A stretch of 64,000 nt of DNA from contig CAYGDO010000001.1 of assembly GCA_964348785.1 (NCBI GenBank), forward strand, positions 21,724 through 85,723, in the 5' to 3' direction. This document shows positions 34,512-63,746 of the stretch, in pieces. The notes beneath the pieces are model-generated. The model did not search any database, was not told where the DNA came from, and saw nothing but the letters and a program-made list of their open reading frames with translations. Position 1 is the first letter of the stretch, and the number at the start of each line of letters is the position of its first letter. The DNA is from an uncultured Candidatus Saccharibacteria bacterium. GTDB lineage: Bacteria; Patescibacteriota; Minisyncoccia; Phycocordibacterales; 2-02-FULL-43-11. The position numbers were made by a program, and so were the translations under genes.

Positions 34512-34523
34512 CCCCGTTAGAAG
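34512..34523 (-). repeat. CTTCTAACGGGG motif copy flanking GC-rich island at 34.1-34.5 kb
   Basis: accccgttagaagtaggacacgg. Confidence 0.55.
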
Positions 34524-34569
34524 TAGGACACGGACAAAATGTTTATGTTTCTAAAATTATGATAAAAAA

Positions 34570-35556
34570 TTATTTGAGTTTTAAATTTTTGATACTAGCT
34601 TTTATCAAACCTGCTACTTCTTTAGCAGAATTACAATTCATAAGTTCAATACGAAGTTCCTTTGCACCGTCAAATCCGCCACAATATGCCTTAAAATGTT
34701 TTTTCATAATTGCAAAATTTTTTCGCCCTTTAAACATTTTTTCAAACAATAAAGTATGCTCTCTTAAAACTTCCAATTTTTCTTTTGGAGAAATTGGAAG
34801 TTTTTTTCTTTTATTAAAAAGCCAAGGATTGCCAAAAATCGCTCTTCCCAGCATCACACCGTCTGCACCCGAATATTTTGCTTTCTCTTTTGCATCTTTT
34901 AAATCTTTTACATCCCCATTCCCCACTATCAAAGTTTCTGATTTTAATTCATCTCTAATTTGTACGGCTTTCTTGACCATATCCCACCTAGCTGGAACGA
35001 GTGACATTTCATTCCTGGTTCTTGCGTGTACGGTAATGACAGCAGGTTCCGTTTCAAGTAGTGCTTTAAGCCAGGTATCTAATTCGTCTTTTGCATAACC
35101 AATTCTTGTTTTTACAGAAACTGGAATTTTTTTGCCCGCAAGTCTAACACCCTCTTTAGCAGATAAAATAATTTGTTTAGCCAAATCATGATTTTTTATA
35201 AGACAAGCGCCTGCGCCACTTTTTTCAATTTTTCTTTCAGGGCAACCCATATTTATATCAATACCATCAAAACCCATTTTAGCTACCATTTTTGAGGCTT
35301 TTTTCATTGCGAGAGGATTTCCACTAAAAAGTTGAGCGACGATTGGCTTTTCCTTTTTAGAAAAAATTAAATTCATCATCAAAGCTTTTTTACCGTCTTT
35401 ATGGCACAGACCATCAGCTGAAGTAAATTCAGTCCAAGTAACATCGGGTTTACCGTATTTAGTAATAATCTGTCGAAAAGCGGCGTCTGTAACATCCGCC
35501 ATGGGCGCAAGACAGAAAAACGGTTTTTTCAATTTTTTCCAAAATCCTAATTCCAT
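34570..35556 (-). CDS. dus: tRNA-dihydrouridine synthase
   Basis: 328 aa; CLAPMADVTDAAFR, FMN TIM-barrel motifs, catalytic Cys region. Confidence 0.8.
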   Translation of the reverse strand: MELGFWKKLKKPFFCLAPMADVTDAAFRQIITKYGKPDVTWTEFTSADGLCHKDGKKALMMNLIFSKKEKPIVAQLFSGNPLAMKKASKMVAKMGFDGIDINMGCPERKIEKSGAGACLIKNHDLAKQIILSAKEGVRLAGKKIPVSVKTRIGYAKDELDTWLKALLETEPAVITVHARTRNEMSLVPARWDMVKKAVQIRDELKSETLIVGNGDVKDLKDAKEKAKYSGADGVMLGRAIFGNPWLFNKRKKLPISPKEKLEVLREHTLLFEKMFKGRKNFAIMKKHFKAYCGGFDGAKELRIELMNCNSAKEVAGLIKASIKNLKLK

Positions 35557-35581
35557 ACACTTCTAAACTATCAGAATAATA

Positions 35582-35616
35582 GAAAATAAAAAAGGCCACC
35601 TGAGAAAGTGGCCCCT
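35582..35616 (-). terminator. rho-independent terminator
   Basis: GGCCAC-ctgagaaa-GTGGCC with T-run on minus strand. Confidence 0.55.
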
Positions 35617-35634
35617 TAAAGAACACATCGAGAC

Positions 35635-37014
35635 TTACGCGTACTGGTCCGGTTTCCCTGGAACAGGATCTACGGACCGATACACTTCGAGTCTCAACCT
35701 ATCAACCCTGAAAATCGGGGCGAGCAGACGAAAGAGTCGTTCGTTTCGAACCGCATGTGATTTCGAACTAGCAGAGGTAAATAGATACTTAGACATATCT
35801 CTGCCAGAAAGAATTGAGGCGACGCCACTCTCCGCCGTAAGCAAGCTGGTCAAGACAATGTAGAAATGCACATCAAGCACCAACCTCTTTCGGGCCGGCA
35901 ACTGACAAGTGCAGTCCGCGTCCAAACCTGCCATTTCAACGAAAGAAGTGATGACATTGTCCACCGCTTCAGAGAGTGGGAATGACAGATTCCCCTCAAA
36001 GAACAATCGCTGGCTGTCCGCTGACAGAAAGCGATGAGTCTCTCCCTTCTCGTCAATCAAGCGATAGAAACGGCTAGGATCAGAGTTCGAGATTTCCTTG
36101 AGCACCCGCCTCAATCGTTCTTCGCCCAATGACCGAAACAAGAACGCCGAAGCCAACTCCACCTGCGGAAACATCACTTTGGTTGCGGCGACGTGGAAAG
36201 CAAACGGGCTCGCCGCCCGCAGGGCAATCCCCGGCAAACCATGATTCAAACTCTCCGGTAAGGTCCTGCTGGACCAGCGTGCAGAACCCGGCCAAAGGTT
36301 CTCATCGTCGGAAATGCGCACCCCAACACAATGGCACACACTGTGACCTTCGTTGTACGCACGTTCCATGAACTCGTGCATGAGAACCTTGCGCCCAGTA
36401 CGCGCCACCTCTTCAGGATTGGCACCGTGCCAAGAGCCAACGTGAGTCGTCCGAATACAACTTGGCGGGAGACCACTTATGTCTTTGTAGCCAGCATCGA
36501 CTACGACAAACAGTTTTTCCTCCTTCCTACGTGAGTCATCACCGTAAGGCCAGATGCAGAGATGATCGGCCCTGTCAGTCCAGTTCCTGCCGTGGAGCAC
36601 CCAAGTACTGATGATATTCCTAGCTAGACTATCCAAACGGCGATCAGTGTATTCCCTCCTCGTTCCCAACTTCCAAATGGCTGGCGAGACATTGGCGTAC
36701 CGACCAACTGAAAGGACCCAGATATCTCCCTCCTGCCTCGCGTCTTTCATCGAGCACGAGCAACTTTCAGGAGCATCCTCAAGAAACAAGCCCTCTTTCC
36801 GACCCAGAACGAGAGCAAGAGGCCTGGTCTCGCCAGTCACTTTAAAAGTCACCTGGCCTGTCCACTCACCGTCACCTGAAGATGAAAAAGAAAGTCCGAC
36901 CTGATCGGTGGAAAAGCCTCCAGCGATTTTTCTGAGGATGACCTCCGCGACCCCGCCCGAGTTAGCCGAGATAACCGACACCAACTCACTACCAGGTTTA
37001 ATTGTCGTTGTCAT
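35635..37014 (-). CDS. GC-rich hypothetical protein (about 459 aa from ATG at 37014)
   Basis: Track ORF extends to 37167 but upstream extension is AT-rich and contains a terminator hairpin (GGGCCC-tcaaacg-GGGGCC+TTTTCTT at about 37090-37120); no family recognised. Confidence 0.5.
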   Translation of the reverse strand: MTTTIKPGSELVSVISANSGGVAEVILRKIAGGFSTDQVGLSFSSSGDGEWTGQVTFKVTGETRPLALVLGRKEGLFLEDAPESCSCSMKDARQEGDIWVLSVGRYANVSPAIWKLGTRREYTDRRLDSLARNIISTWVLHGRNWTDRADHLCIWPYGDDSRRKEEKLFVVVDAGYKDISGLPPSCIRTTHVGSWHGANPEEVARTGRKVLMHEFMERAYNEGHSVCHCVGVRISDDENLWPGSARWSSRTLPESLNHGLPGIALRAASPFAFHVAATKVMFPQVELASAFLFRSLGEERLRRVLKEISNSDPSRFYRLIDEKGETHRFLSADSQRLFFEGNLSFPLSEAVDNVITSFVEMAGLDADCTCQLPARKRLVLDVHFYIVLTSLLTAESGVASILSGRDMSKYLFTSASSKSHAVRNERLFRLLAPIFRVDRLRLEVYRSVDPVPGKPDQYA

Positions 37015-37361
37015 TGCTTGCCTTGTTGTTTTGCCTGTTTTCGTCAAAGAACTTATCGCCCGTCTCCACACGGAGTAGCGATTAAGAAAAGGCCCCCGTT
37101 TGAGGGCCCGTTTCTTCAATTGATTTTTGCAATAAGAGAAACCGACCCTCAAACTTGTGGGGACCAAAAGCTAAAATAAAAGTTTGCAGTTCGGAATTTC
37201 ATAGTTATATATAAATCATACATAATCGTTTTTTTATGTCAAATGTAAAAAATCCACACCCCAAGGTCACACCTCCTATAAAAAACACTGTCAAACTAAG
37301 AGTGATTTTAAGATCTATATATGTAAAAAGTACAAAGTTCGACCTTGTAAGTAATTTGGTT

Positions 37362-39860
37362 TTAGTTTCTAACCTTAATCAAATCCTCAGAGCCAAAAAC
37401 AATTTTTGTTCCAGCAGGAGCTTCACCACGTAAAATTTTATCCGCCACCATGGTTTCTATTTTGTCCTGTATTGCCCTGTTCATAGGTCTAGCGCCAAAC
37501 GTAGGATCAGTACCTCTTTCAACTAAAGCATTTATGAGTTCAGGTGTAATCAAAACTTCCAAACCTTTTTCAACCAAACGCTTATTTAATTTTTTCATCA
37601 TAAGTTCTGCGATCTTGGCCAAATAAACTCTTGTTAGAGGTTTAAAGATTATGGCGCCATCAAAACGATTGATCAATTCTGGTTTAAAAATTCCTTGATT
37701 TACTATATAAGAAATAATTTCATCTTTGTTAATTGCGTTCTCCCCTTTCTCTTTAACAATCTTCCAAATCATTTCACTGCCAGCGTTTGATGTGGCGATA
37801 ATTATCAAATTTCTAGCATTCACTTTTCTGCCTGACATATCTGAAAAAATTCCTTCATCAAGAATCTGCAAAAATAAATCCATAACGTCTTTAGAAGTCT
37901 TTTCAAACTCATCCAAAAGCAACACACCATAAGGCTTATCCCGAAGCATTGAAGTTAAAACGCCTGGCTTTCCAATTGCAAAATTTCCTATAAGTCTTTC
38001 TAAGGCATCAATGGTTTTATATTCAGACATATCAAGACGCATAATGGCACCTTCGCCTCCAAAAAATGCGTCAGCCAAAGCCTTTGTGGTTTCCGTCTTT
38101 CCAACACCTGTAGGACCCAAAAATAAGAATGAGCCCATGGGACGATTTGGATTGCCCACTCCAGAATGAGAACGTCTTATGGCACTAGCTACAGACCTCA
38201 CGGCTTCTTCTTGCCCTATTACTCTTTCTAAAAGCAAATTCTCCAAATTTAATAAAATAGAAATATTCTTTTTATCTTCCGCGATGTTGGTTGGAACACC
38301 GGTTTTTTGCTCTACTACCTTCATAATATCTTCTCTGCCGATTGTCTTTCCCTTTGAACTATTCAAAGAAGCAACCTCAACTAGCAAATCGTCGGCCTTA
38401 CCTTCAACAGAAGATCCAAAGAAAAATCTTTCAGCACTTTCAGCGGAAGCACGCAATGCTTGATACAAAAAGTAAACTCCAGTCTGGCTTTCTATCCTTA
38501 AAGCTTCATCTTCCAAATATTTTAAAACTGGGCCAAGACCAACTGATTTCATAAGAACTCTTTCAAAGTTTCTCATAATTGCATCATTATTTTCCATTGT
38601 GGCATGAAAACTAGATACTGAAGCTGTTCCAATAATATGTACCTGTGGTGCATTAAAATACCAAGACAAAAGAGCAATCATATCAGAACCAATTTCTTTG
38701 GCAGAAGATATAAGGCCAGGCAAATCTTTTAAAACTAAAATAATATTGCCGGCTCTCAATGTTTCATTCAAAGCTGAACGAAAATGAGCTTCAAAAACAG
38801 TTTTTTCTTTTGAGGAAGAGATTATATTTGTATAATCTAAGACATAGATAAGTTTATGTTCCAAATTGGGAAAAACTAATCCTTTTTCTATCATATAACC
38901 CAGTCCACCAATAATTGACAGGGCTTCTTCGTTTGTGTCGGCTACGATTACCGCATTGGCTCCTTTTATTTTAGAAAGAACTTGTTCCAAATCCTCAATT
39001 TCCGTTTTCCTAATTGAAACAACATCCTCGGCACCATTGTAATATGGAGAATTAGTAATTAACGAAGCATATTTTGAAAGAGTAGGCACATCAGCATAAG
39101 CCCAATCTTTCCCAATGCCAGGAATCCTTCCCAATCTATCCTTACTCCACCACCTACCCCTCTTTCTAAGATTCAAAAGCATATTTTCAGCCCACAAAGA
39201 CGCGCCTACAAAATCCTCCTTTGTAACTCCTCTTGAGGAAAGAAAGATAACAAAATCTTTGTCAGCTTCAATAAGACCTCGTGAAAAATTTTCAAATCTA
39301 ATTTTTTGAGAATCGCTTTTAATTGAAAGGGAGTTGAGAGTTATTTTAGAAACAGATTTTGAATAAAAATCCACCACTTCGCTAAAATTTAGACCCAACC
39401 TTGATAAAGTAACCAATCCTGTTTTTGAATATAAAAAAGCTTCAACTGCCAACGTGCTTGAGTTCCTATAGAAAATCGAAGCGGATTCAAAAGTCATTTG
39501 CATATCATTTTCTTTCCCATCTTCATTCACCAAATCCAAAAAAGCATAAGAATGATAAAAAGCTTTTAATGCCAAAATCATTAGTTGAAACGCTAGACAT
39601 AAAAGAAAAGTACCGAAAACAATTGGTTCCCAATGTTCTATATCAGAAATAAACTTTTCCGAAAAGAAAACATTGGAATTCAACTTTGATGACAGAAAAA
39701 ATAACGATAAAAACCCGGAAACAACCGATAAAATATTTAAAACGAAACTGTATAGACTATGTGAAGAAAAACCAAAAAATTTATCGAGAAAAATCGCGGG
39801 ATAAAATCTTAGCGCTTCTCTTCTTAATTCTTCAATTGTTTTGTTATTGTTTTCAGTCAT
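37362..39860 (-). CDS. Clp/Hsp100-like AAA+ ATPase with N-terminal transmembrane region, degenerate first AAA module and intact ClpB-D2-like module
   Basis: 832 aa; LLERVIGQEEAV..., GPTGVGKTE Walker A, LLLDEFEK Walker B, sensor-2 region GARPMNRAIQ. Confidence 0.6.
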   Translation of the reverse strand: MTENNNKTIEELRREALRFYPAIFLDKFFGFSSHSLYSFVLNILSVVSGFLSLFFLSSKLNSNVFFSEKFISDIEHWEPIVFGTFLLCLAFQLMILALKAFYHSYAFLDLVNEDGKENDMQMTFESASIFYRNSSTLAVEAFLYSKTGLVTLSRLGLNFSEVVDFYSKSVSKITLNSLSIKSDSQKIRFENFSRGLIEADKDFVIFLSSRGVTKEDFVGASLWAENMLLNLRKRGRWWSKDRLGRIPGIGKDWAYADVPTLSKYASLITNSPYYNGAEDVVSIRKTEIEDLEQVLSKIKGANAVIVADTNEEALSIIGGLGYMIEKGLVFPNLEHKLIYVLDYTNIISSSKEKTVFEAHFRSALNETLRAGNIILVLKDLPGLISSAKEIGSDMIALLSWYFNAPQVHIIGTASVSSFHATMENNDAIMRNFERVLMKSVGLGPVLKYLEDEALRIESQTGVYFLYQALRASAESAERFFFGSSVEGKADDLLVEVASLNSSKGKTIGREDIMKVVEQKTGVPTNIAEDKKNISILLNLENLLLERVIGQEEAVRSVASAIRRSHSGVGNPNRPMGSFLFLGPTGVGKTETTKALADAFFGGEGAIMRLDMSEYKTIDALERLIGNFAIGKPGVLTSMLRDKPYGVLLLDEFEKTSKDVMDLFLQILDEGIFSDMSGRKVNARNLIIIATSNAGSEMIWKIVKEKGENAINKDEIISYIVNQGIFKPELINRFDGAIIFKPLTRVYLAKIAELMMKKLNKRLVEKGLEVLITPELINALVERGTDPTFGARPMNRAIQDKIETMVADKILRGEAPAGTKIVFGSEDLIKVRN

Positions 39861-39872
39861 TATCTAAAAAAT

Positions 39873-40259
39873 CTAAACCTGCAAAATAAAAAAACTTATT
39901 CCATACAAAATTAAACCGCCAAAAATTAAAGGTAAAGCTAACCAAAATATAAAACCCACAAAAAGAAATAAGGTAGCAAAGAGCGTAACAATTAGACCAA
40001 AAATTATAGTTGCACTCCTTATAAAGAAACCGCTAATTCTCATCAGAATGTTAACGATAAAATCGGTAAAAGCATTGGAGTGTCCATATTCATCTTTTGA
40101 AAGACGTTTCCAAGGAGAAAACAAAGTCTCAGTCAACAAACCAATTGAGAAAAAATTAGTTAAAAACCAAATAAGATTCTTTGAGACTCTAACATAATCT
40201 GTTAAAGCTCCCACATAATGCCACGCTAAATAAGTTGGAAGGATAGTTAAAAATCTCAC
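39873..40259 (-). CDS. small integral membrane protein
   Basis: 128 aa, four hydrophobic helices. Confidence 0.4.
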   Translation of the reverse strand: MRFLTILPTYLAWHYVGALTDYVRVSKNLIWFLTNFFSIGLLTETLFSPWKRLSKDEYGHSNAFTDFIVNILMRISGFFIRSATIIFGLIVTLFATLFLFVGFIFWLALPLIFGGLILYGISFFILQV

Positions 40260-40294
40260 ATCTAATATTATAACTTTTTTAAAAAACTAAATCA

Positions 40295-41101: not shown

Positions 41102-41112
41102 CTAAATTAGAA

Positions 41113-53157: not shown

Positions 53158-53379
53158 TTAAACTAATTTCTTCAATTCATCTTGATATTTCTTCATCACC
53201 TCCATCGTAACAGTCATTTGATCTCTTCCTGATTTCATTGCTTCTTCAATTTCTTTGCCTATTTTTGTAAACAAATCTGGATTTTTTTCCATCATAGCAA
53301 AAACCTTTTCTTGCTGATCTTTTGGAACATCTTTCATCTTTGCCTGTAATAATTTCTTCATCAAAAACTCTTTAAACAT
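53158..53379 (-). CDS. small charged hypothetical protein
   Basis: 73 aa. Confidence 0.35.
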   Translation of the reverse strand: MFKEFLMKKLLQAKMKDVPKDQQEKVFAMMEKNPDLFTKIGKEIEEAMKSGRDQMTVTMEVMKKYQDELKKLV

Positions 53380-53438
53380 AATTATGATTTTATCTTGTAA
53401 ATATAAATTAAATAAATTTCTTTAAATTCTATCACCTG

Positions 53439-53450
53439 CTTCTAACGGGA
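53439..53450 (+). repeat. CTTCTAACGGGA motif copy (upstream of GC-rich histidine phosphatase)
   Basis: same motif at 54395-54407 (+), 63738-63746 (+, partial), 54295-54307 (-), 34512-34523 (-), degenerate 61642-61653. Confidence 0.6.
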
Positions 53451-53594: not shown

Positions 53595-54236
53595 ATGAAC
53601 ACCACACCCAAAATCTGGGAATTGGTCAGTGTCCTTATCCTCGCCCGGCACGGCAAAGCCGTCGCCGCCGAAGGTCGCCCAGACGCCGAACGCAAGCTCA
53701 ACGAACTCGGGATCGCCCAGGCCAACGCCCTCGGCTTCTCCGTTCAAAAGCTCGAGATCGACATCGTTCTGTCATCCCCGCTCAAGCGGGTGGTGAGCAC
53801 CATGCGCACCGCGACCAACGACACTATCCCGATCCATCCGGTCGCCGAACTCACCTGCTCGGATGATCCGATTGACCCGATCCAGATCATGTGGGGCAAG
53901 CTCGGCAATGTCCCCATCTCTCGATACTTCGCTGAGGCCGCCGGCGAATATCTCAAGGTCTGGGGGCAAACAGCCCTCGGTGCCATCATCCGCGAACTCC
54001 AAAATGGCGGACACGACCAGAAGGTTCTCGTCGGCGGACATGCCGTTCTCCAGAATGCCCTCTTATGGGCAATCTCCCAGTCAGTCTCCGAGGACTGCTG
54101 GGCGGCGGCAGGAATGGACGAGGTCAATGAAATAGCCTGCCAAAACCTTCTCGGAGAAGGCGAGGCCTTCGTCCTGAGATTCCCATCACATGAGGCCGGT
54201 GTCACCACATGTGAACACCTCCGCCCCATGGCGTAA
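53595..54236 (+). CDS. histidine phosphatase superfamily protein (SixA/PGM-like), GC-rich
   Basis: 213 aa; LILARHGKA (RHG), SSPLKRVVSTM, VGGHA motifs; TTGACT-N17-TATTGT promoter-like upstream. Confidence 0.6.
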   Translation: MNTTPKIWELVSVLILARHGKAVAAEGRPDAERKLNELGIAQANALGFSVQKLEIDIVLSSPLKRVVSTMRTATNDTIPIHPVAELTCSDDPIDPIQIMWGKLGNVPISRYFAEAAGEYLKVWGQTALGAIIRELQNGGHDQKVLVGGHAVLQNALLWAISQSVSEDCWAAAGMDEVNEIACQNLLGEGEAFVLRFPSHEAGVTTCEHLRPMA

Positions 54237-54265
54237 CTCCGCTCACCCAGTTCTTTCTCTCAAGT

Positions 54266-54292
54266 CCCGATCCGCATCGGGGCTTTTTTATT
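54266..54292 (+). terminator. rho-independent terminator
   Basis: CCCGAT-ccgc-ATCGGGG + CTTTTTTATTT. Confidence 0.6.
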
Positions 54293-54294
54293 TA

Positions 54295-54307
54295 CCCCGT
54301 TAGAAGC
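54295..54307 (-). repeat. CTTCTAACGGGG motif copy (inverted) just after the histidine-phosphatase terminator
   Basis: ccccgttagaagc. Confidence 0.6.
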
Positions 54308-54394
54308 AACGTACACCAAATTTAAACCAAGAGACATTCTTAAAATTAATTTTAATCTAAAACCTACCAGAAAATGTTTGACCGGCCGTGTCCC

Positions 54395-54407
54395 GCTTCT
54401 AACGGGG
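54395..54407 (+). repeat. GCTTCTAACGGGG motif copy at the downstream boundary of the swivel-domain array
   Basis: gtgtcccgcttctaacggggt; close match to reverse complement of 34512-34535. Confidence 0.6.
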
Positions 54408-54440
54408 TTTATCCAAAAAACTTTATTACTAAAAAAACAG

Positions 54441-55727
54441 TTAACTACTTTTTATAATTTTTACTACACCCTTCTCCGCATCAACCTCTACCAAATCACC
54501 ATCTTTAAGAACTTTCGTGGCAATTTTGGTACCAATGATACAAGGCTTTTTCATTTCTCTAGCGACAATCGCAGCGTGAGAAGTTATCCCTCCTTCATCC
54601 GTGATAAAAGCTGAGGCTTTATTCATACCAATAATATACGAGGGCGCAGTAGTTGGAGCAACCAAAATATCTCCTTCTTTTACTTTTTCAATTTCATAAG
54701 CAGTCATTACAATTTTCACCGTCCCCCTTAAAACACCCTTATACGCAATTGCACCTTTTAACTCTTTAACATCGGCATAATCAGAAATAGCTAAAATCGG
54801 GCCTTCAAACAAAACTTGCTCCTCACCCATACCTACACAAGATACATTTTTATAAAACTTTAATTCACCAGAAATTAAACTATCGAAATCATACCACTTC
54901 AAATCTTCGAATTTAATTTTATATAAACTAGCGACCTCCTTTAAAATAGGCCTTAATCTATACATAAATTCCCAAAGGACATCCGTCCTAAATGTCCTGA
55001 AATAGACTAATTCTTGAGTGGCGACCACTAGATCTGATAATTCATCTGGTACATTCGGTCGATTAAATTTTTCTGTTATCCCATCTTTTTTAAGCCTTTG
55101 CCTTTCGGATGATAATTCCTCAATACTGTAAGGTTCGCCAAAGCCATCCCTTATTTTTATCCAGCCAAATTCTTGTTGAATTTTCTCCAAATCATCATCC
55201 CCCAAAAGAGCTTCTAAAAAATATGAATGCTTATTTTTCTTAACAGGATAACTAACATCACCAATAAATTTATTTATATCGCCTTGATAATATTTTGGTA
55301 TCTCTAATTTTAATTTATTTAAGTATAAATGTTCGAAAGCGTGTGTTAGCCAGGTATAAGCTATATTTTCACGAATCAATTTTCTAATTTCCATTAATTT
55401 ATCAGGGACCCGATCAGATGAATCTAAAATAGATTTTACCCTTTTTTTACCACTCTCATAAAATTTTTCACAATTACTTACAACCTCAAACAAATCAATT
55501 TTATTTTTGATTAATAAATCAACCTGTATATCCAAGACCTTGAGTGATTTATAAAAAGCACCGTTTTGAAATAAAAAAGCTTTTTGTTCCCAGTTTAAAC
55601 CAATTGTTTTAAAAGTCTGATAGCCATTTGCCATAAGAGAAAGCACAAAAGCTCCAAATGGACGATCCGCCCAATGTTCCCAATCATTGTAATCTAAAAC
55701 TTTCTTTTTTATTTCCTCTTTTGTCAT
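54441..55727 (-). CDS. PEP-utilising phosphohistidine swivel-domain protein, paralogue A (no ATP-grasp domain)
   Basis: 428 aa; C-terminus [46 protein letters not shown]. Confidence 0.7.
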   Translation of the reverse strand: MTKEEIKKKVLDYNDWEHWADRPFGAFVLSLMANGYQTFKTIGLNWEQKAFLFQNGAFYKSLKVLDIQVDLLIKNKIDLFEVVSNCEKFYESGKKRVKSILDSSDRVPDKLMEIRKLIRENIAYTWLTHAFEHLYLNKLKLEIPKYYQGDINKFIGDVSYPVKKNKHSYFLEALLGDDDLEKIQQEFGWIKIRDGFGEPYSIEELSSERQRLKKDGITEKFNRPNVPDELSDLVVATQELVYFRTFRTDVLWEFMYRLRPILKEVASLYKIKFEDLKWYDFDSLISGELKFYKNVSCVGMGEEQVLFEGPILAISDYADVKELKGAIAYKGVLRGTVKIVMTAYEIEKVKEGDILVAPTTAPSYIIGMNKASAFITDEGGITSHAAIVAREMKKPCIIGTKIATKVLKDGDLVEVDAEKGVVKIIKSS

Positions 55728-57175
55728 TTATTTAAAATCCTAACAACTCCACTGTTTGCGTCAACCTCCACCAAATCCCCGTCTTTAAGAACTTTCGTAG
55801 CAATTTTAGTGCCAATGATACAGGGTTTATGCATTTCGCGAGCCATGATGGCAGCATGGCAAGTAATCCCCCCTTCATCAGTAACAAATGCTACAGCTTT
55901 TTCTAAAGCAGGCATAAATGATGGAATAGTCATTGGAGCAACAACCACATCTCCTTTTTGGACTTTAACATTATCTGCGTCAGTTTTAAGAATTTTTACA
56001 ACCCCAGTTGCAAATCCTTTGTACGCAATTTTTCCCTTTAGTTCCTTTTGGTCATCATTTTGTCTTTTCAAAAAAGAATGGTTTTCGATAAATTTTTCAA
56101 CCTCACCCCCTTCCAAAACTACCGGTTCACCTAATCCGTAATAAATCAAAAAATTCTTTTTTCTTTCTTCAATATTTTTTTTATAATCTAATTTTCCTCG
56201 TAAAGCCAAAACTATTTCAGGAACACATAAATTGAGCATATTGTTGTAAGAAACATTAAGCACAAAGGCCACCTTAGACAGCAAAGGTCTAATGTGATAA
56301 CCCGATTCATGAAAGAAATCAGCGCGTTGATTCCTGACAAAAATTATTTCTCTAATTTTATCAACTATTTTTTTATCATCTACACTAAAATTTTTTGTTA
56401 AAACTTTAATTTTTTCTTCTTTTTCGAGTCGTTTATTCAATCTTTTTTCTAATTCTTTTTTTGCTTCTTCTTTAGAAATATTGTTAAGTCTATTCAATAC
56501 ATCCTCAGTCCTCCACGGCTCACCCAAGAAAAATCTCAAAGAAATCCAACCATATTTTTTAGCATGTTTACTGGCCAGTTCTTCTTTATTTAAAACATCA
56601 CTCGAAGCCAAAATTAAAAAATCTTTCTGTTCTTCTTCAACAACAGTATCTTTATTTGATACTGAAATGGCACTTAGTAATTCTTCAAACTCCTTTTCAT
56701 CTTTTGAATATTTTTTAACAAGACTCTTTGCAATATCAGTGGTCGGACCTTCAAATTGAGTTATGTTGTAAAAAACCGTGTACTTTATTTCTGTATCAAA
56801 AAACTCTTCCATCAACCTTGCTAATTCCTCATGATCTTCAATAAACAATGATTTTGCCGATAATTCCTTACATCTTTCCTGTAACTCATTGCCGAAAACC
56901 ATACATTTTTTAACCAACTCACTGACATAATCTAAGCCCTTAGAAGAAAATTTAAATTTTATTTCTTCTTCCTGCTTTTTTAAATCATTAATAAATTGAT
57001 AGAAAAAATAATTAACTTGTAACCATCTAACCAAAGTGTCTAAATCAAAAATTTCCTTTGTGGCTCTTTTATCCAACATTCCCCCAATTAAAAGATGGGA
57101 AATCATATAAGGCTCGATTCTCTCTCCAAAATAAACAATGTCCTCCTTTTTTAAATTTTCCAACTCTTTTGTCAT
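55724..57175 (-). CDS. PEP-utilising swivel-domain protein, paralogue B
   Basis: 483 aa; C-terminus [46 protein letters not shown]; 4-nt overlap with A. Confidence 0.7.
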   Translation of the reverse strand: MTKELENLKKEDIVYFGERIEPYMISHLLIGGMLDKRATKEIFDLDTLVRWLQVNYFFYQFINDLKKQEEEIKFKFSSKGLDYVSELVKKCMVFGNELQERCKELSAKSLFIEDHEELARLMEEFFDTEIKYTVFYNITQFEGPTTDIAKSLVKKYSKDEKEFEELLSAISVSNKDTVVEEEQKDFLILASSDVLNKEELASKHAKKYGWISLRFFLGEPWRTEDVLNRLNNISKEEAKKELEKRLNKRLEKEEKIKVLTKNFSVDDKKIVDKIREIIFVRNQRADFFHESGYHIRPLLSKVAFVLNVSYNNMLNLCVPEIVLALRGKLDYKKNIEERKKNFLIYYGLGEPVVLEGGEVEKFIENHSFLKRQNDDQKELKGKIAYKGFATGVVKILKTDADNVKVQKGDVVVAPMTIPSFMPALEKAVAFVTDEGGITCHAAIMAREMHKPCIIGTKIATKVLKDGDLVEVDANSGVVRILNK

Positions 57176-58632
57176 TTATTTAAAATCCTAACAACTCCCT
57201 TCTCCGCATCAACTTCTACCAAATCGCCGTCTTTAAAAACGTCAGTGGCGTTATTTATACCTACAACACAAGGAATCCCTAATTCACGAGAAACAACGGA
57301 CACATGAGCAGTAATGCCTCCATCTTCAGCCACCACGCCAGAAGCCTGGATCAAAACTGGCATAAAATCCGGACTCGTATTGGCCGCTATTAAAATATCA
57401 CCCTTATTAAACTTCTTAAAATCTTCCCCAGACAATACAACCTTAGCTATTCCTTTTGCAAATCCTTTTGAGGCCACTCTGCCTTTAAATTCTTTCTTAC
57501 CAATATCCTTATTTATCAAAAACCTTTCTTCAAACTTTTTAGCATCTTTTCCTAAAAGAATATTCAATTTGTTAGGAACGGCAATAACAATATTATATTT
57601 CGATCTTTCTTTGACCAAACTTTCGTCAGGCATCTGTCCACCTAGCGCAAATTCGATTATCTCCCTAGGATGTAAATCTTTTATAAAACCTATCGAGACA
57701 TCCTTCCTCCTTGCCAATTCCCCAAACAAAGGTTCGGCATAATACTCCAGCTTGTTTATACAAGATTTGTAATAATCTTTAAGATATGTAGCGAAAGATG
57801 CAATTCTTGCCAATTCTTTACCCTTTTCATCAAGTGATTTAACTAAATTTTCATAAGTTTTTTTATCATCAACAATTTTTTTCAAAAAATTATTTCTCTT
57901 TTGCGTAGGATTATCTTTTAATAAACCATCCAGCGTATTTTTGTAATCATTATATTCTTTAGGCTTTTCATCAAAATAACCCATAACGCCCCAAGCATAT
58001 TTACCAACAATTTCCGCAATTTTTTCTTTAATAGATTGAGAATTTATATCTTCTTTTTTTTCAAAAATAGAGGATGCTAGGTTGAGCAAATCTAATTCTT
58101 CAGATACAGATAACGTTGGCTTAATGGGTTGGGCTAAATTTATAATTATCTGATCAACATCAGATTGATTTAAAAAATGTTCCCTAATCTTTTTAACAAC
58201 AACTCTATCCAAAATTCTTAAAGTGCCCGCCGTCACCATAAATTCCCAATAAAACGTAAAATAACTATCGAAGACTTCAGCCAAATCATCATCTGTTAAT
58301 TTATTTAAATCCTTCAAAAATATTTTCTTTACGCCTTGTTCCATCTTTTCGGTAAGATATTTTTCCATTTCTTCCAATAACCCTTTATCTTTCCAAAAAC
58401 GATCAAAAACTTTTTGAAAATCTTCGTCGCTTAAAACAAAAATCCATTTTACATAGTGTTCGTTCATTAAAGAAATAATAAAACCTGTATGGGGCCAAAT
58501 TGTATGTATCTGTGAATATTGTGTAGTTATTAAATAGCATGGGTAAAAATAAGAAACACGGCCACCTTCTGAGTAAAGCTGTTTATTTTCAAAAATATTC
58601 CAATCAATTTTTTCATCTCCTTCAAAATTCAT
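57172..58632 (-). CDS. PEP-utilising swivel-domain protein, paralogue C
   Basis: 486 aa; C-terminus EDGGITAHVSVVSRELGIPCVVGINNATDVFKDGDLVEVDAEKGVV. Confidence 0.7.
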   Translation of the reverse strand: MNFEGDEKIDWNIFENKQLYSEGGRVSYFYPCYLITTQYSQIHTIWPHTGFIISLMNEHYVKWIFVLSDEDFQKVFDRFWKDKGLLEEMEKYLTEKMEQGVKKIFLKDLNKLTDDDLAEVFDSYFTFYWEFMVTAGTLRILDRVVVKKIREHFLNQSDVDQIIINLAQPIKPTLSVSEELDLLNLASSIFEKKEDINSQSIKEKIAEIVGKYAWGVMGYFDEKPKEYNDYKNTLDGLLKDNPTQKRNNFLKKIVDDKKTYENLVKSLDEKGKELARIASFATYLKDYYKSCINKLEYYAEPLFGELARRKDVSIGFIKDLHPREIIEFALGGQMPDESLVKERSKYNIVIAVPNKLNILLGKDAKKFEERFLINKDIGKKEFKGRVASKGFAKGIAKVVLSGEDFKKFNKGDILIAANTSPDFMPVLIQASGVVAEDGGITAHVSVVSRELGIPCVVGINNATDVFKDGDLVEVDAEKGVVRILNK

Positions 58633-58645
58633 AAAATTTACTTAA

Positions 58646-60040
58646 TTACAATGAATTGTTTTTAAGAATTGTGACCACACCCCTCTCCGCATCAACTTCC
58701 ACCACGTCACCGTCCTTAAGAACTTTAGTGGCGATTTTGGTGCCAATGATACATGGCTTTTTCATTTCCCGTGCAACAATAGCGGCATGAGAACTTATGC
58801 CCCCTTCATCAGTCACAAATGCCCCGGCAATTTTCATAAAAGGTAAAAATTCTGGTCTGGTCATGCTTGTAACTAAAATCTCTCCTTCTTCCATTTTTTT
58901 AGCATCTTCAGAGTGTGGATTCAAAATAACTCTCACTCTTCCTTTAACTAATCCCTTACAAGCCACAGAGCCTTTCAAATCAATATTTTTAGACTCTTGA
59001 GTATTTAAAACCTGTTCAACCATTTTCCAACATTTTTGACCTTCTTCAGAAAAATAATAATTATACTCTCCGTCTTCTGTCATGTGAACAAAAAAGCCTT
59101 CCTCTATTCTCTTTTTCAAATCATTTTCAGCTACAGTAGCAAAAAATAATTCCTCTACTCTATCAGGAATAAGACCGTTTAATAATTTTAAATCAATTTT
59201 CTGTCTTTTAGCTACCTCCCTTAAAATTTTCAACATTCCAAACAAACCAACGTAATTCAGTCTTTTTCTTTCATCACGCCATTTGGTTAATAAAACAAAT
59301 ACATCATATGGATTTTTATCAAGACCATATTTCTTTAAAATTAACTTCTTGTCAGGAGCTTCGATAATTTTTGATTCATCTAATTTTTGTAATTCAAGAT
59401 CAATAAAACCATCATCCACTTCAACAAAAGAAGAATAGTCTATTCCGTACCAGAAAAAAAGTTTCTTTAATTCATCTCTTGTTATTATCCCATTCTTTAA
59501 GTCAGACAATTTCTTATCCCATAAAGTAATAAATGATGGCTCATCTGGAATAAGAAGACTTTGTTTTTCTTCAATACCAAATTTATAGTTATTAGAAATC
59601 TTTTCTATCTCTTCGTGATCAATCCCTATATCAAAAGAATCTATAAAAATTCCACATGCCCACATTTCAAGATCCTTCTTATAAATTTCGTTATATCTTT
59701 TTATAAGATCTTCAATGTCTATAGAAGATAAATCAGTTTTGTATATTTCATACGATAGTAGTGTTAACTCTTTATCTAAAATATTCCAATCTTTTAGCCA
59801 ATCATCTACCCCTCCATCCTCAAATTTATTTAAAAAAGATTCTGATACTTTTCTCCATTGATCTTCATAAAAAGCAGCCCATAGATAATTATTTTTATAA
59901 AACAAAAAACCCTCACCCCAACTAAAAGGGAGATACTTCTGCATCATCTTACCTGCCGTCATGTACGGTAAAATAACTTGAAAGGCCCCGCATTTTCCTT
60001 CTTGTTTATAAAGTTTTCTATTGGGGTCTATTTTTATCAT
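58646..60040 (-). CDS. PEP-utilising swivel-domain protein, paralogue D
   Basis: 464 aa; C-terminus [46 protein letters not shown]. Confidence 0.7.
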   Translation of the reverse strand: MIKIDPNRKLYKQEGKCGAFQVILPYMTAGKMMQKYLPFSWGEGFLFYKNNYLWAAFYEDQWRKVSESFLNKFEDGGVDDWLKDWNILDKELTLLSYEIYKTDLSSIDIEDLIKRYNEIYKKDLEMWACGIFIDSFDIGIDHEEIEKISNNYKFGIEEKQSLLIPDEPSFITLWDKKLSDLKNGIITRDELKKLFFWYGIDYSSFVEVDDGFIDLELQKLDESKIIEAPDKKLILKKYGLDKNPYDVFVLLTKWRDERKRLNYVGLFGMLKILREVAKRQKIDLKLLNGLIPDRVEELFFATVAENDLKKRIEEGFFVHMTEDGEYNYYFSEEGQKCWKMVEQVLNTQESKNIDLKGSVACKGLVKGRVRVILNPHSEDAKKMEEGEILVTSMTRPEFLPFMKIAGAFVTDEGGISSHAAIVAREMKKPCIIGTKIATKVLKDGDVVEVDAERGVVTILKNNSL

Positions 60041-60073
60041 TTTTCATTTAGCAGACAAAGTCTTAATCAGTCT

Positions 60074-61573
60074 TTAATCTTCTTCGTATCTTTTAATAAT
60101 CTTTACAACACCTTCATTTACATTAACTTCTACCAAATCCCCATCTTTCAAAACTTTCGTGGCAATTTTCGTGCCGATAATGCAGGGAATTCCCAACTCT
60201 CTTGAAATAATCGCTGCGTGGCAAGCAATACCGCCTTCGTTTGTAATAATCGCTTTTGCTTTTCTCATTAATGGCACGAACTCAATTCTGGTCATTGATG
60301 TAACCAGAATCTCTCCGTCTTCAAAAATATCCTTGGAGGGATCAAGTACTACTCTGACTTTTCCTGAGAAATTACTTACACCTCCTCTACTTGCAACTTG
60401 TCCTTTTACAAAACCCTCGAATTTAAAAGCTGTCGCTACTGAAAAAAGCTCCTTGGCTTCGCCATCATAGAATATTTTCGCATTTTGTCCTTTTTCCCAT
60501 ACCATAAAAACTCCCGCTTTTCTTCTTCTTATCTCTTCCACATTTAATTTATATTCACTTTCTAAACATTTACCGAACTCATCAAAAGTATAAACCGCTA
60601 AATCCTCATAAGGAATATTGGATACTTTAGCAGTATGATCCATAGTCATTGCCAAGTAATAAAAAAATCTCATCATTCCGATTTTTCTTAAATCAATCCA
60701 CTGAATAACAAGTTTCGCAAAAGCTAAATCTCTTTTATCTATTTCGGTTAGCTCTATTGTACCCAGAATTTTTTTACGATTTTCATGTAAGACATCAAAA
60801 TTTTGTCTATTTTTTTCTATTTCCAATTCAATGCCCTCTTTTTTATTCTTAGAAATTTCAACGTAAACTTCTTTTAGAATTTTTTCCGGAGTAGTTTCTT
60901 CAGCCTTATAAAAATCACTTCGGAACCAAAAATACTTATCAATGTAACTTTTAATATTTTCTTTAAGAATTTTTCCAGAGGATACTTCAATGCAAATCCT
61001 CAAGAAATCCTCTCTTTCAAGATTGAAAACGGTTGGTTCTTCCGGATGTGCCAAAGTATTAAATATCTCATCTGCCTTATTAATTTCTAAATTATGACGT
61101 TTGGCAAAATGAGGAACTATTTCCTTATTTATAATAGCCCCCTTATCCTCCCAAAGAGAACAATAATGAAACCACTCTCCTGAAAGAATCGAAAATTTTT
61201 TATAAAAATCAAAAATTTTCTCTTTTGAATAAGTCGCGCCATTTTTAAAATATTCTTCCCAAGCTTTTTCTATCTCCTTTTCCAAAAAAATCTGACGTTC
61301 TATCATTTTATCTGCGCTCTTTGGATCACGTAAATAATCGTCGTATACTTTTTTAGCAATATCCTCAATTATCTTCTTAGCATTAAATTGATGGAACGAA
61401 CCCATCTTATCAAAAGAGAAAAAAGCGAAACCTGGACTGTATAGAACACCATGAAGCGAATCAGATTCTGTGTAAGACTTGAAAGCCATATCAAGCGCCA
61501 CCAAAGAGACGCCGGCAATAGCATTATCTAACTCATTATTTTTGAGATAGTTTATTATTTCGCCTTTTGTCAT
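60074..61573 (-). CDS. PEP-utilising swivel-domain protein, paralogue E
   Basis: 499 aa; C-terminus [46 protein letters not shown]. Confidence 0.7.
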   Translation of the reverse strand: MTKGEIINYLKNNELDNAIAGVSLVALDMAFKSYTESDSLHGVLYSPGFAFFSFDKMGSFHQFNAKKIIEDIAKKVYDDYLRDPKSADKMIERQIFLEKEIEKAWEEYFKNGATYSKEKIFDFYKKFSILSGEWFHYCSLWEDKGAIINKEIVPHFAKRHNLEINKADEIFNTLAHPEEPTVFNLEREDFLRICIEVSSGKILKENIKSYIDKYFWFRSDFYKAEETTPEKILKEVYVEISKNKKEGIELEIEKNRQNFDVLHENRKKILGTIELTEIDKRDLAFAKLVIQWIDLRKIGMMRFFYYLAMTMDHTAKVSNIPYEDLAVYTFDEFGKCLESEYKLNVEEIRRRKAGVFMVWEKGQNAKIFYDGEAKELFSVATAFKFEGFVKGQVASRGGVSNFSGKVRVVLDPSKDIFEDGEILVTSMTRIEFVPLMRKAKAIITNEGGIACHAAIISRELGIPCIIGTKIATKVLKDGDLVEVNVNEGVVKIIKRYEED

Positions 61574-61670
61574 AAGTTATTTTTTAGAATTGTGACTACC
61601 CCCTCTCCGCATCCATCCCAGTAGCAAAAATCAGAATTTCGCTACGGGACAAGCCTCCACCAATATATCA

Positions 61671-63722
61671 TTACTTACCCACTCTTTTAATTATTTTGAC
61701 AATGCCCTCGTTTGCATTAACTTCGACCTCATCACCGTCTTTCAAAACCTTCGTAGCAATTTTGGTGCCGATAATGCAAGGAATTCCTAATTCTCTAGAA
61801 ACTATTGCTGCATGAGATATTATTCCTCCCTCATCAGTTATGATTGCCCCAGCTTTTTTACAAGCCAATATCATTTCAGGGCCAGTAGAGCCCGCCACCA
61901 ACACTTCACCCTCCTTCATCATTTCTATTTCCGTCTTAAAATCAGTATCTGCGCTAAACATTATCTTTTTAACTTTCCCTTTATAAATTCCTTTATGTGC
62001 GACATTTCCCTTAAAACTCTCTAAATCTTTATCAACTTCTAAAAACTGCTTATAAAGAATTTCTGCTTCTTCACCCACGACATCTTCACCATTAGAAAAC
62101 AAGCCACGAACAATTGCGCCAGATCTTTTCGAAACTGAGATTTTGCGTCCACGTAACATTTCCACCAGTTCAGTGTATTTATAGTCCTCCACAGACAATT
62201 CAAGTGTAAGGCGTCTGGAAATTTCATCTAAAAAGGGCTTGAGAATATTAGGATCATACATTGTAAAATTAAGAAGTTTACGATATTCAAATTTTAATTC
62301 ACCAGCTTGTTTCAATTTTTTCTCTAAAGCAGGGTCTTTTTGCAACTTTGCAGCCACCAAATCTAAACTGTGATATTCCAAAGGAAAATAATTACGCCAC
62401 ATCTCTATAGACAAGATGGCTGATTTTTCCAAGAACTCTGCCAGTTCTTCATTCGAAAGCTTTTCCGTTTTTATCGTCAGTAATTCACTTATACTTTTTT
62501 CAAATTTCACCATCTTCTGTCTTAAGTCTGTCGTAAACTCTTCATATCTCTTAATAAATAAATTTAAACCTTCCTCCCCGAGTCTCTCGTGTTCAACCTT
62601 ACTAACAAAAAGACTGTTCGAACGCTCTTTGATAAAGAGGATAAAATCCTTATCTGCATAACCCGAATAGAAATGAGCGTCAGAAAAAATATACGGCACA
62701 CCAAACGTCCAAAGAAAATCATAATCTTTTACACTAGGAAAATTTTTAGGCTTTTCTTCTAAAATATCAATTTTCTTAGACAAAGTCGTAATTGGTCTCG
62801 ACTGAACAATATAGAATTTACCAGCCTCGTATGCCCATTCAATATCGCAAGGAAAACCATAGTGCTTTTCTATGCCGAGAATAATTTCCGACAATTCCAA
62901 AATTTGCTTTTCGCTTAATTTTTGCTTTTCGCCCTCAACGGCGGAAATATCTCTCCATTCATTTCCACCACCTACTTTCCTGAATAAGCCACGTTCCTGA
63001 ACGGAAATGTTTGAGTCAATAATTCTTCTTGGTTCTTTTTCTACAACATAAGAATCTGGCGTAATCTGTCCAGACACAATCGCTTCGCCAAGACCAAACC
63101 CGGCTTCAATAATCATCTGATTATAATCCTCTGTTACAGGGTGAACAGAAAAAGCGATTCCAGACACTTCGGATTCAACCATTTTTTGCACCACCACTGC
63201 CACAGAAATTTTTGTTTTATGTAAATCTTTTTCAAAACGATAAAAAATAGCACGAGGAGTAAACAAAGACGCCCAACACTTCCTCACATTTTTCAAAAGA
63301 TCAGACTCTTCTGTATTCAAAAAACTATCAAGTTGCCCTGCCCAAGCAGCAGAACTAGAATCTTCTGCCGTAGCAGAAGACCGAACAGCGACAAACCTAG
63401 CGCCTAACGCCTTAAAACCTTTCCTAATTTCCTCTCTAATATCTTCAGGCATTTCTTTTGCCAAAATCAAAGATTGAATTTGTTCTGATGCGTTTTCAAC
63501 TGTATGCATTTCAGCATGTTTTACCTTGTGAAGGATTGAATCTATTTCAATATTTAAATCTGTTTCTTCGCAAAATCTTTCAAAAGCACCAGCAAGAACA
63601 ACAAAACCCGGTGGAACCGGAATCCCCGCATTGGTCATTTCTCCAAGCGACGCACCTTTTCCTCCCGCAATTTCTGCATCATTTTTCGAAAGCTCTTTGA
63701 ATTCCTTGGTGAATTTTTGCAT
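61671..63722 (-). CDS. PEP synthase/rifampicin-phosphotransferase-like enzyme: N-terminal PEP/pyruvate-binding ATP-grasp domain (PPDK_N-like) + middle domain + C-terminal swivel domain, paralogue F
   Basis: 683 aa; N-terminus EIAGGKGASLGEMTNAGIPVPPGFVV... (PPDK_N), C-terminus [46 protein letters not shown]. Confidence 0.75.
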   Translation of the reverse strand: MQKFTKEFKELSKNDAEIAGGKGASLGEMTNAGIPVPPGFVVLAGAFERFCEETDLNIEIDSILHKVKHAEMHTVENASEQIQSLILAKEMPEDIREEIRKGFKALGARFVAVRSSATAEDSSSAAWAGQLDSFLNTEESDLLKNVRKCWASLFTPRAIFYRFEKDLHKTKISVAVVVQKMVESEVSGIAFSVHPVTEDYNQMIIEAGFGLGEAIVSGQITPDSYVVEKEPRRIIDSNISVQERGLFRKVGGGNEWRDISAVEGEKQKLSEKQILELSEIILGIEKHYGFPCDIEWAYEAGKFYIVQSRPITTLSKKIDILEEKPKNFPSVKDYDFLWTFGVPYIFSDAHFYSGYADKDFILFIKERSNSLFVSKVEHERLGEEGLNLFIKRYEEFTTDLRQKMVKFEKSISELLTIKTEKLSNEELAEFLEKSAILSIEMWRNYFPLEYHSLDLVAAKLQKDPALEKKLKQAGELKFEYRKLLNFTMYDPNILKPFLDEISRRLTLELSVEDYKYTELVEMLRGRKISVSKRSGAIVRGLFSNGEDVVGEEAEILYKQFLEVDKDLESFKGNVAHKGIYKGKVKKIMFSADTDFKTEIEMMKEGEVLVAGSTGPEMILACKKAGAIITDEGGIISHAAIVSRELGIPCIIGTKIATKVLKDGDEVEVNANEGIVKIIKRVGK

Positions 63723-63737
63723 ATAAACATTATATTA

Positions 63738-63746
63738 TCTAACGGG
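63738..63746 (+). repeat. TCTAACGGG motif copy in the promoter region at the upstream boundary of the swivel-domain array
   Basis: ttatctaacgggataaat. Confidence 0.45.

Follow-up and report, generated by a model that had tools for sequence, protein, structure and literature searches.

A recurrent motif in a 64-kb bacterial window very probably forms the inverted ends of a non-autonomous transposable element

Motif copies and the genes beside them

The stretch of DNA analysed here (64 kb, hereafter the window) includes a dus gene, a GC-rich small ORF, a GC-rich histidine-phosphatase (His_Phos) gene, a PPDK-like gene and a six-gene PEP-utilizer array. Five copies of a recurrent motif had been claimed among these genes, and all five are present. 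The 12-mer CTTCTAACGGGG occurs exactly at 34512-34523(-), 54295-54306(-) and 54396-54407(+) and with one mismatch at 53439-53450(+), and the 9-mer TCTAACGGG adds a further site at 63738-63746(+). When up to one mismatch was allowed, the 12-mer was found four times in the 64-kb window against 0.14 expected, and none of 100 shuffled sequences contained four or more; the 9-mer was found five times in the window against 0.36 expected. The comparison with shuffled sequence, which had been proposed as a check and was run here on the window, thus shows that the motif is non-random. These sites are not surrounded by a cloud of weaker copies, since at three mismatches the window held 30 matches against 31.7 by chance. 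A longer shared context had also been proposed, and it is there: CGTGTCC-NN-CTTCTAACGGGG is common to 54388 and, as reverse complement, to 34512-34533. The features discussed below are the following.

34043-34061 (-): unoccupied terminator tail TTATTTATCCTAAAAACTT, the same sequence as the insertion site of both intact copies
34483-34511 (-): promoter TTGACA-17-TAGCAT of the GC-rich small ORF, conserved in the related loci L333 and L334
34512-34557 (-): copy B, what is left of a right-hand end (about 46 nt), same subfamily as copy A, judged from its sequence and the relatives L333/L334
53438-53450 (+): copy C, single right arm GCTTCTAACGGGA flanked by CAAG, at the right edge of an insertion relative to the related locus L004
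54291-54294 (+): left target-site duplication TTTA, the final bases of the terminator tail TTTTTTATTTA
54295-54307 (+): left terminal inverted repeat of copy A, CCCCGTTAGAAGC
54295-54407 (no strand): copy A, intact MITE of 113 nt with perfect 13-nt inverted arms; the orthologous locus L004 is empty
54395-54407 (+): right terminal inverted repeat of copy A, GCTTCTAACGGGG
54408-54411 (+): right target-site duplication TTTA, followed by TCCAAAAAAC
61642-61653 (+): questionable relic ctacgggacaag within one of the spacers of the gene array
63736-63747 (+): copy D, single end TATCTAACGGGA flanked by TAAA, its invariant 9-nt core intact

Intact and decayed copies

Copy A lies between the convergent His_Phos gene, with its terminator, and the first PEP-utilizer gene, and its predicted folding energy is -29/-39 kcal/mol (z about -4.3). 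The related genome represented by L004 has the same locus without copy A. A second intact copy, likewise with a TTTA duplication, was found on the same contig about 1.1 kb past the window edge (L335 8537-8648). The two are identical at 98 of 113 positions (87%), with all 15 differences in the interior and none in the arms, and both were inserted into the tail that the GC-rich units of this genome share, TTTTTTATTTA-TCC[TA]AAAAAC. The interior of copy A showed no similarity above shuffled background to the elements of other genomes. According to the original prediction, the sites at 54395 and 63738 stand in direct orientation, one at either end of the six-gene array; the orientation is correct, but the site at 54396 is the right arm of copy A, whose partner arm is at 54295.

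The right arm of copy B, ACTTCTAACGGGG, corresponds to 34524-34512 and is accompanied by the subterminal CGTGTCC seen in copy A. Its outer end directly adjoins TTGA, the preferred target of the family, which here belongs to the -35 hexamer in the promoter of the GC-rich small ORF. In two relatives, L334 (Dus 94% identical) and L333 (82%), the dus stop, the TTGACA promoter and the GC-rich small ORF are all as in the window, with the motif absent; L333 carries element copies of its own at other loci. A local alignment had indicated that copy B was a full-length element overlapping the 3′ end of dus. We withdrew this reading because in the comparison with L334 the C-terminal end of dus and the 11 nt directly past its stop proved to be native sequence, which leaves only about 46 nt of element.

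Compared with L004, about 70-74 nt are inserted here (roughly 53377-53450); copy C forms the right edge of this insertion, the left arm of which is unrecognisable. Copy D precedes the start codon of the PPDK-like gene (at 63722) by 14 nt and is identical in the strain variants L336 and L337; its inner bases ATC are a variant found in other genomes, and no partner arm was found for it. The inventory of this genome therefore comprises the intact elements at 54295-54407 and 1.1 kb outside the window and three solo ends, at 34512, 53438 and 63736, which are decayed relics. Because three of the four copies in the window are solo ends, the element model for these ends rests on comparison with relatives. 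As for the degenerate copy that had been placed at 61642-61653, the sequence is present but is not significant alone; it has about 9 nt and the CAAG flank in common with copy C, and the same junction of GGGA with CAAG.

Arms, duplications and distribution across genomes

Searching metagenomes with a single-end probe gave at least 120 matching loci, and exact paired arms were present at no fewer than 85 genome loci. Within 400 nt of 115 single-end matches, the partner arm was exact in 70 cases and carried at most two mismatches in 104, while 11 had no partner arm. The hosts were mostly Patescibacteria of many classes, together with a few MAGs labelled as other phyla, and the most copies in one MAG were nine (H14-bin029_1). 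Elements measured 29-145 nt, or up to 211 nt when nested, and had no coding capacity. Their ends contain the invariant core YCCCGTTAGA / TCTAACGGGR, usually extended to the 13 bp of CCCCGTTAGAAGC, with positions 2-10 constant. Identical 4-mers flanked 67 of 107 arm pairs, against 0-2 in shifted controls, and an exact 4-bp target duplication was found in 132 of 186 distinct elements. Several related copies may occur in one genome, as illustrated by copy A, its 87% identical paralogue and copy B with its shared subterminal sequence, whereas between genomes the interiors are wholly different and only the 9-nt core remains constant.

These short non-coding units with terminal inverted repeats, a fixed-length duplication, empty sites and several copies per genome are very probably MITEs. 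The family appears to be undescribed: Rfam 15 (gathering and E<=1 scans) returned nothing over the window copies or the elements in 10 other loci, a literature search by sequence retrieved the motif only as coincidental oligonucleotides, and a keyword search gave no paper connecting MITEs with Patescibacteria.

No transposase or autonomous parent was found around about 200 loci (about 1.4 Mb). The window encodes no transposase, recombinase or integrase, so that the search for a cognate recombinase suggested earlier came back empty here; its 20-kb extensions contained no parent or transposase, and no RAYT or Y1 transposase was present among the window ORFs scanned. In viral contigs the 17-mer had no matches and the 14-mer only chance matches in phage genes, and the plasmid collection yielded no parent element. 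Clustering the loci against one another, as DNA and as protein, brought up housekeeping genes only. Candidate parents were discarded: long arm pairs with matching duplication proved to be ribosomal-protein genes between two short elements (L090), and the longest elements turned out to be nested MITEs.

Target sites

The commonest duplicated target was TTGA, with TTTA, TTCA, CATA and CAAG being rarer and TTAA also found. In 52 of 96 elements (54%), a -10-like hexamer was located 16-18 nt past the flanking TTGAnn, against a background of 8.7% for all TTGA and 14.9% for intergenic TTGA at the same spacing. Restricting the comparison to TTGAC[AT], a spaced -10-like hexamer followed 69% of the element-adjacent sites and 36% of the intergenic background. 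As judged from these spacings, the TTGA target is usually the -35 hexamer of a promoter-like site. In the window, the motif was also considered as a promoter element in itself and rejected, given that it abuts a -35 box only at 34512 and that the distance to the promoter varies at the other copies.

About 10% of the copies lie in frame within genes, for instance in a murA-like gene, in ffh (L037) and in pilin genes. The in-ORF copies are stop-free and, among the eight located at least about 14 codons from the ORF ends, seven have a length that is a multiple of 3 nt.

Arms, duplications, empty orthologous sites, multiple copies per genome, wide distribution and promoter-proximal placement are all shown, and we consider it highly probable that the motif forms the terminal inverted repeats of a foldback-type MITE, a DNA transposon of the non-autonomous kind. 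Of the roles originally proposed, the third (the ends of a small non-autonomous element) is the right one. A putative transposase acting in trans would bind both arms, and integration at a 4-bp staggered cut would duplicate the target, most often TTGA. The mechanism we infer is cut-and-paste by an enzyme of presumably DDE type. Because TTGA(CA) is the sigma-70 -35 hexamer and the genomes are compact, most surviving copies are found in terminator tails or immediately ahead of a -35 box left intact, and a number are tolerated in frame in genes.

Alternative explanations

Covariation between the arms raises the question of whether the folded form is itself functional. At the variable arm positions 1 and 11-13, 76 double changes were complementary and 8 were not, and seven interior pairs with compensatory changes were found in a 65-77-nt subfamily with two hairpins. 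(In this subfamily, the interior faced one way with respect to the neighbouring promoter in 5 cases and the other way in 2, too few to judge.) Two pairs of orthologous insertions, L040/L053 and L021/L049, kept 26 of 26 arm bases; the flanks of L040/L053 align at about 77-82% identity, and their interiors look clearly more diverged, as judged by eye. This pattern hints that selection may act on a folded single strand, something that plain DDE cut-and-paste does not require.

The element could accordingly be pictured as a host-selected folded module upstream of promoters, a three-way junction of RNA or single-stranded DNA, working as an insulator or terminator, a processing site or a protein-binding hairpin, with mobility secondary or proceeding via a folded single-strand intermediate. 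The covariation, the strong predicted folds, the retained arm bases, the lack of arm changes between copy A and its paralogue and the non-random placement at promoter-like sites would all fit. Nevertheless, arm conservation is partly a matter of ascertainment because the searches demanded exact arms, hairpin-templated repair can produce arm symmetry, and arms do decay, as the three solo ends in the window and the partnerless single-end matches indicate. Interiors are unrelated between genomes, the orthologous promoters of close relatives apparently do without the element, and in-ORF copies would be read through in frame rather than removed. We regard this explanation, which is compatible with the MITE reading, as unlikely. 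A bolder variant, likewise unlikely, is a mobile promoter-proximal module common to Patescibacteria, in which the transposase would read the -35 TTGACA or be guided by promoter-bound RNA polymerase, and arms and hairpins would be kept as a folded-strand transposition substrate or as an insulator or regulator site for the host.

The motif had also been proposed as an operator for a locus-specific regulator, such as the YerC-like protein, controlling the PEP-utilizer array and its neighbours. The position of the 34512 copy next to a -35 hexamer and of those at 63736 and 53438 upstream of genes could be read in that way, but orthologous promoters and intergenic regions in L004, L333 and L334 do not carry the motif, the arms at 54295 and 54396 lie between convergent gene ends, the position relative to promoters is not fixed within the window, and the same arms with target duplications recur beside unrelated genes at hundreds of loci across many phyla. 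An operator is therefore very improbable.

Scarcely credible, finally, is an att/res-like site for the integron-like insertion of GC-rich cassettes: two copies do flank the GC-rich His_Phos gene, another borders the GC-rich small-ORF unit, both intact copies sit within the conserved 3′ tail of GC-rich units, and the GTTAGAA / TTCTAAC of the arms resembles integron core sites, yet the His_Phos gene is syntenic and equally GC-rich in motif-free relatives, as is the small-ORF unit beside 34512, copies lie close to just 2 of the roughly 13 GC-rich islands, the core-like heptamers are in the reverse order of attC, no integrase is encoded in the window, and site-specific recombination makes no target duplication such as the 4-bp one found here. 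What stands of the proposed marking of GC-rich units is an association that is real in this genome but indirect, arising because their TTGACA promoters and shared terminator tail supply insertion targets; the motif is not a boundary signal for these genes or for the array.

Discussion

Reading the motif as the end of a MITE explains it completely and removes a tempting link to cassette insertion or to regulation of the PEP-utilizer array. It also appears to add a previously undescribed family, of an otherwise familiar type of element, that many lineages of CPR/Patescibacteria share; mobile DNA is usually considered scarce in their genomes. In these MAGs the element is a handy marker for recent rearrangement and strain variation, and in-frame insertions and long spurious ORFs may mislead gene callers. 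Landing on -35 hexamers with the promoter left intact is an unusual target choice, and it might lead to a transposase that would serve as a genetic tool in organisms for which hardly any exist.

Several known systems share part of this picture. Integron attC sites are alike in size range, in having conserved ends only around a variable structured middle, and in lying at 3′ gene ends. They carry an inverse core RYYYAAC on the 5′ side and a core GTTRRRY on the 3′ side, with intI nearby and no target duplication. Here, in contrast, the heptamers are inverted (GTTAGAA 5′, TTCTAAC 3′), a duplication is present, and the window has neither an integrase nor an array of promoterless cassettes. REP/REPIN sequences are likewise short intergenic palindromic doublets that form hairpins and whose arms stay symmetrical; REPINs are not known to generate target duplications, are conserved as whole units within a genome and are mobilised by RAYT, whereas our element has a target duplication and no RAYT gene was seen in the window. 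Rickettsia palindromic elements (RPE) are likewise palindromic repeats of small compact genomes, and protein-coding genes tolerate them in frame, as they do about 10% of the copies described here. RPE are not known outside Rickettsia, nor are they known to have conserved terminal inverted repeats with a regular duplication; the copies described here are, unlike RPE, mostly intergenic.

A possible candidate parent would be the IS1380 family or a piggyBac-type transposon: termini begin 5′-CC(C) and the 4-bp duplication is of the T..A type (TTGA, TTTA, TTCA, TTAA), although none of the copies had such a transposase beside it. The nearest counterparts as elements are other bacterial MITEs, Correia/NEMIS of Neisseria and RUP of Streptococcus pneumoniae, which are non-coding and about 100-150 nt long. 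The likeness extends to terminal inverted repeats, a short fixed-length duplication, many mostly intergenic copies, a hairpin formed by the whole element, and positions beside promoters and terminators. In these established families, each known from a single genus only, interiors are conserved and the parent IS is known or suspected. The family described here differs in that no parent was found in the regions searched, that only a 9-13-nt end is common across classes while interiors are lineage-specific, and that its duplication is of 4 bp, with a TTGA preference coinciding with the -35 hexamer.

Motif copies in the window are the ends of one intact element and of three relics

Scanning of the window located four matches to the 12-mer CTTCTAACGGGG, compared with 0.14 expected from shuffled sequences: three exact ones, at 34512 (−), 54295 (−) and 54396 (+), and a fourth at 53439 (+) that has one mismatch. 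The 9-mer TCTAACGGG brought in 63738 (+), giving five against 0.36 expected. At three mismatches the window count fell to chance level, and the degenerate copy that the original prediction placed at 61642, while present in the sequence, was not significant by itself. The copies at 54295 and 54396 proved to be the two arms (terminal inverted repeats) of a single 113-nt unit, copy A, which separates the His_Phos terminator (gene at 53595-54236) from the 3′ end of the first PEP-utilizer gene. Three solo-end relics, copies B to D, account for the other sites.

Element copies in the window
54295-54307, copy A, left arm CCCCGTTAGAAGC
Copy A interior, 87 nt, AT-rich
54395-54407, copy A, right arm GCTTCTAACGGGG
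54291-54294 and 54408-54411, TTTA duplicates flanking copy A
34512-34524 (−), copy B, right arm, outer end touching TTGACA-17-TAGCAT
53438-53450, copy C, right edge of a ∼70-74-nt insertion relative to L004, in a divergent promoter region
63736-63747, copy D, TATCTAACGGGA followed by TAAA, invariant 9-nt core retained

The closest relative sharing the gene order (locus L004: peptidase M10, 73-aa gene, His_Phos, 428-aa PEP-utilizer gene) lacks an element at this site and its terminator tail, GCTTTTTTATTTGCCTCTAAAAA, is uninterrupted; the two loci make a classical pair of occupied and empty sites. A second intact copy was found on the same contig about 1.1 kb past the right end of the window (L335, 8537-8648). 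It matches copy A at 98 of 113 positions and also shows the TTTA duplication, and the relative L333 carries its own element copies at different loci. Copy A is predicted to fold strongly on either strand (z about −4.3).

The promoter touched by copy B belongs to a GC-rich small ORF. At the corresponding locus of two relatives, L334 and L333 (Dus 94% and 82% identical, respectively; L333 comes from the sample that also contains L004), the dus stop codon, the promoter and the GC-rich unit are the same and the motif is absent. Copy B retains ∼46 nt (34512-34557), including a subterminal CGTGTCC region in common with copy A; its left half, together with part of the flank, has been lost. The longer context proposed to be shared between 54388 and 34512-34533 is real. 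A reading of copy B as a full-length element overlapping dus was rejected, because comparison with L334 shows that the dus C terminus and the first 11 nt past the stop codon are native. Copy C has no left arm, and copy D, whose inner bases are a variant also found elsewhere, has no partner arm.

A foldback-type MITE family across Patescibacteria

When a single genome of each species was searched for arms paired at a spacing of 76-106 nt, at least 85 loci emerged, most of them from a wide range of patescibacterial classes (Saccharibacteria, Parcubacteria groups, Uhrbacteria, Kazan, Gracilibacteria, Falkowbacteria and others). Among 80 loci listed, 16 came from MAGs assigned to Planctomycetota, Elusimicrobiota, Cloacimonadota, Stahlbacteria, Gammaproteobacteria or Bdellovibrionales. 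A probe for one end only (TTGA plus the 13-mer) matched at least 120 metagenome loci. With one arm forced to be exact (n = 115), 70 elements had an exact partner arm within 400 nt, 24 had a partner with one mismatch and 10 a partner with two; the remaining 11 had none. Elements measured from 29-30 nt, with the two arms enclosing a loop of 3 nt and TTGA still present on either side, up to ∼145 nt (median ∼80), nested ones reaching 211 nt, and their interiors were unrelated from genome to genome.

Positions 2-10 of the arm form an invariant core, CCCGTTAGA. Positions 1 and 11-13 are variable but change in a complementary manner on the two arms: we counted 76 complementary double changes, 8 non-complementary ones and 135 single changes. 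The 65-77-nt subfamily folds into a 13-bp outer stem and two hairpins, with compensatory changes at seven pairs. We conclude that the motif marks the ends of MITEs (miniature non-coding transposable elements) of a foldback-type family; the arm symmetry and the covariation in the hairpins are compatible with a function for the folded single strand.

Target sites often lie at −35 boxes

Identical 4-mers flanked 67 of 107 pairs, compared with 0-2 in shifted controls, and 132 of 186 distinct elements. Targets counted in the unbiased genome set were TTGA/TCAA (26), TTTA/TAAA (12), TTCA/TGAA (9) and CATA/TATG (6), every one fitting YNNR. After TTGA, the next base was C in 67 of 91 insertions and the following one A in 45 of 91, so that the target reads TTGAC(A). 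A −10-like hexamer 16-18 nt downstream accompanied 52 of 96 element-adjacent TTGA sites, against 8.7% of all TTGA in the same loci and 14.9% of intergenic TTGA; for TTGAC[AT], the rates were 69% beside elements and 36% in intergenic regions. Elements thus occur directly before intact −35 boxes at rates far above those expected from the target sequence alone. This placement may reflect either targeting or the survival of harmless insertions.

About 10 of 96 copies were within stop-free open reading frames, and seven of the eight located at least about 14 codons from both ORF ends add a multiple of three nucleotides. A Planctomycetota MAG (L037, 116-219 and 1909-2012) carries two near-identical in-frame elements in genes for essential proteins, an EPSP-synthase-family (MurA-like) protein and Ffh (SRP54), each gaining 36 residues, HPVRSELRRDRDSEH...ASNGA. 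The reading frames argue that in-gene elements are translated through rather than spliced out. In-frame elements also separate the leader from the FTLIE motif in pilin-like genes (L028, 6868-6977; L089, 5621-5730), where the right arm reads as LLTG and hence creates a G-F junction ahead of the hydrophobic segment.

The association with GC-rich genes is indirect

The window is part of a 222.5-kb ENA metagenome contig whose AT-rich host (37% GC) resembles Patescibacteria, and about 13 GC-rich islands are scattered across it. Each GC-rich gene comes with a consensus TTGACA promoter of its own, together with a long 5′ UTR and a hairpin terminator; most lack a Pfam match.

GC-rich genes (52-59% GC; genome, 37%)
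12542-13159
13377-14114
32457-33587 (−)
34241-34360 (−)
35635-37167 (−)
53595-54236, His_Phos

Stereotyped terminator tails, TTTTTTATTTA-TCC[TA]AAAAACTTT
54280-54294 + 54408-54430, MITE inserted
34043-34066 (−), unoccupied (34043-34061)
32395-32420 (−)
L335 8525-8536 + 8649-8670, MITE inserted

The AT-rich native terminators of the window lack such a tail. Both intact copies of the genome are in these tails (two of four), at the same TTTA. The motif had been read as a boundary of GC-rich inserts; the association exists, yet it is indirect, since motifs lie near GC-rich units because consensus TTGACA promoters and the common tail occur there. In comparisons with relatives (L002, L003, L004, L333, L334, L336), at least three of the genes are syntenic and still GC-rich at only 56-60% protein identity, and are thus not recent inserts. 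The GC-rich small-ORF unit and a 376-aa gene are kept downstream of dus in L333 and L334. In several relatives the His_Phos gene adjoins PEP-utilizer arrays, with 54-59% GC in loci of 34-36%; comparison of these genomes excludes a recent insertion.

We also noted that His_Phos, which in the window neighbours an array of genes for PEP-utilizer ‘swivel’ (phosphohistidine) domains (54441-63722), stands beside such arrays in L002, L004 and L005 as well, and this conserved adjacency suggests that the two may be functionally linked. The small ORF within 34050-34511 (−) encodes 39 aa, MKPTEHAPPAHITVNTIGTKSAIVNSASTAIGVAIGIIA, with a ∼120-nt 5′ UTR; its 3′ UTR is long and runs to the terminator. In L333/L334 its UTRs are conserved and the peptide is divergent; the unit may yield either a structured RNA or the precursor of a peptide. 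Two tandem GC-rich paralogues share 71-nt promoter regions with two TTGAC boxes (12432-12502/13251-13321, 75% identity) and 64-nt terminator regions (13181-13244/14139-14202, 91%), their coding parts being more diverged. The strain variants L335 and L336 have an identical PPDK-like protein. A corresponding locus in the two (L335, 7202-8515; L336, 3443-4513) was called as a 437-aa ORF in one assembly and a 356-aa ORF (57.6% GC) on the opposite strand in the other; GC-rich DNA has here probably given rise to a spurious antisense ORF. Two copies of a perfect 27-nt palindrome, TTTTACAAAGGTCGAACCTTTGTAAAA, and two partial ones are all intergenic (full and partial sites: 21029-21055, 24422-24448, 23164-23190 and ∼37334-37368).

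Mobilization and relation to known elements

No transposase or recombinase was found near any copy, nor in the window, its extensions or viral contigs. The target duplications and empty sites point to a transposase that would act in trans, with 4-bp staggered integration. No Rfam family matched any copy in the window or in 10 other element-bearing loci, and our literature search found neither the motif in a relevant context nor a link between MITEs and Patescibacteria. As far as can be told, the family is new and the kind of element, well known.
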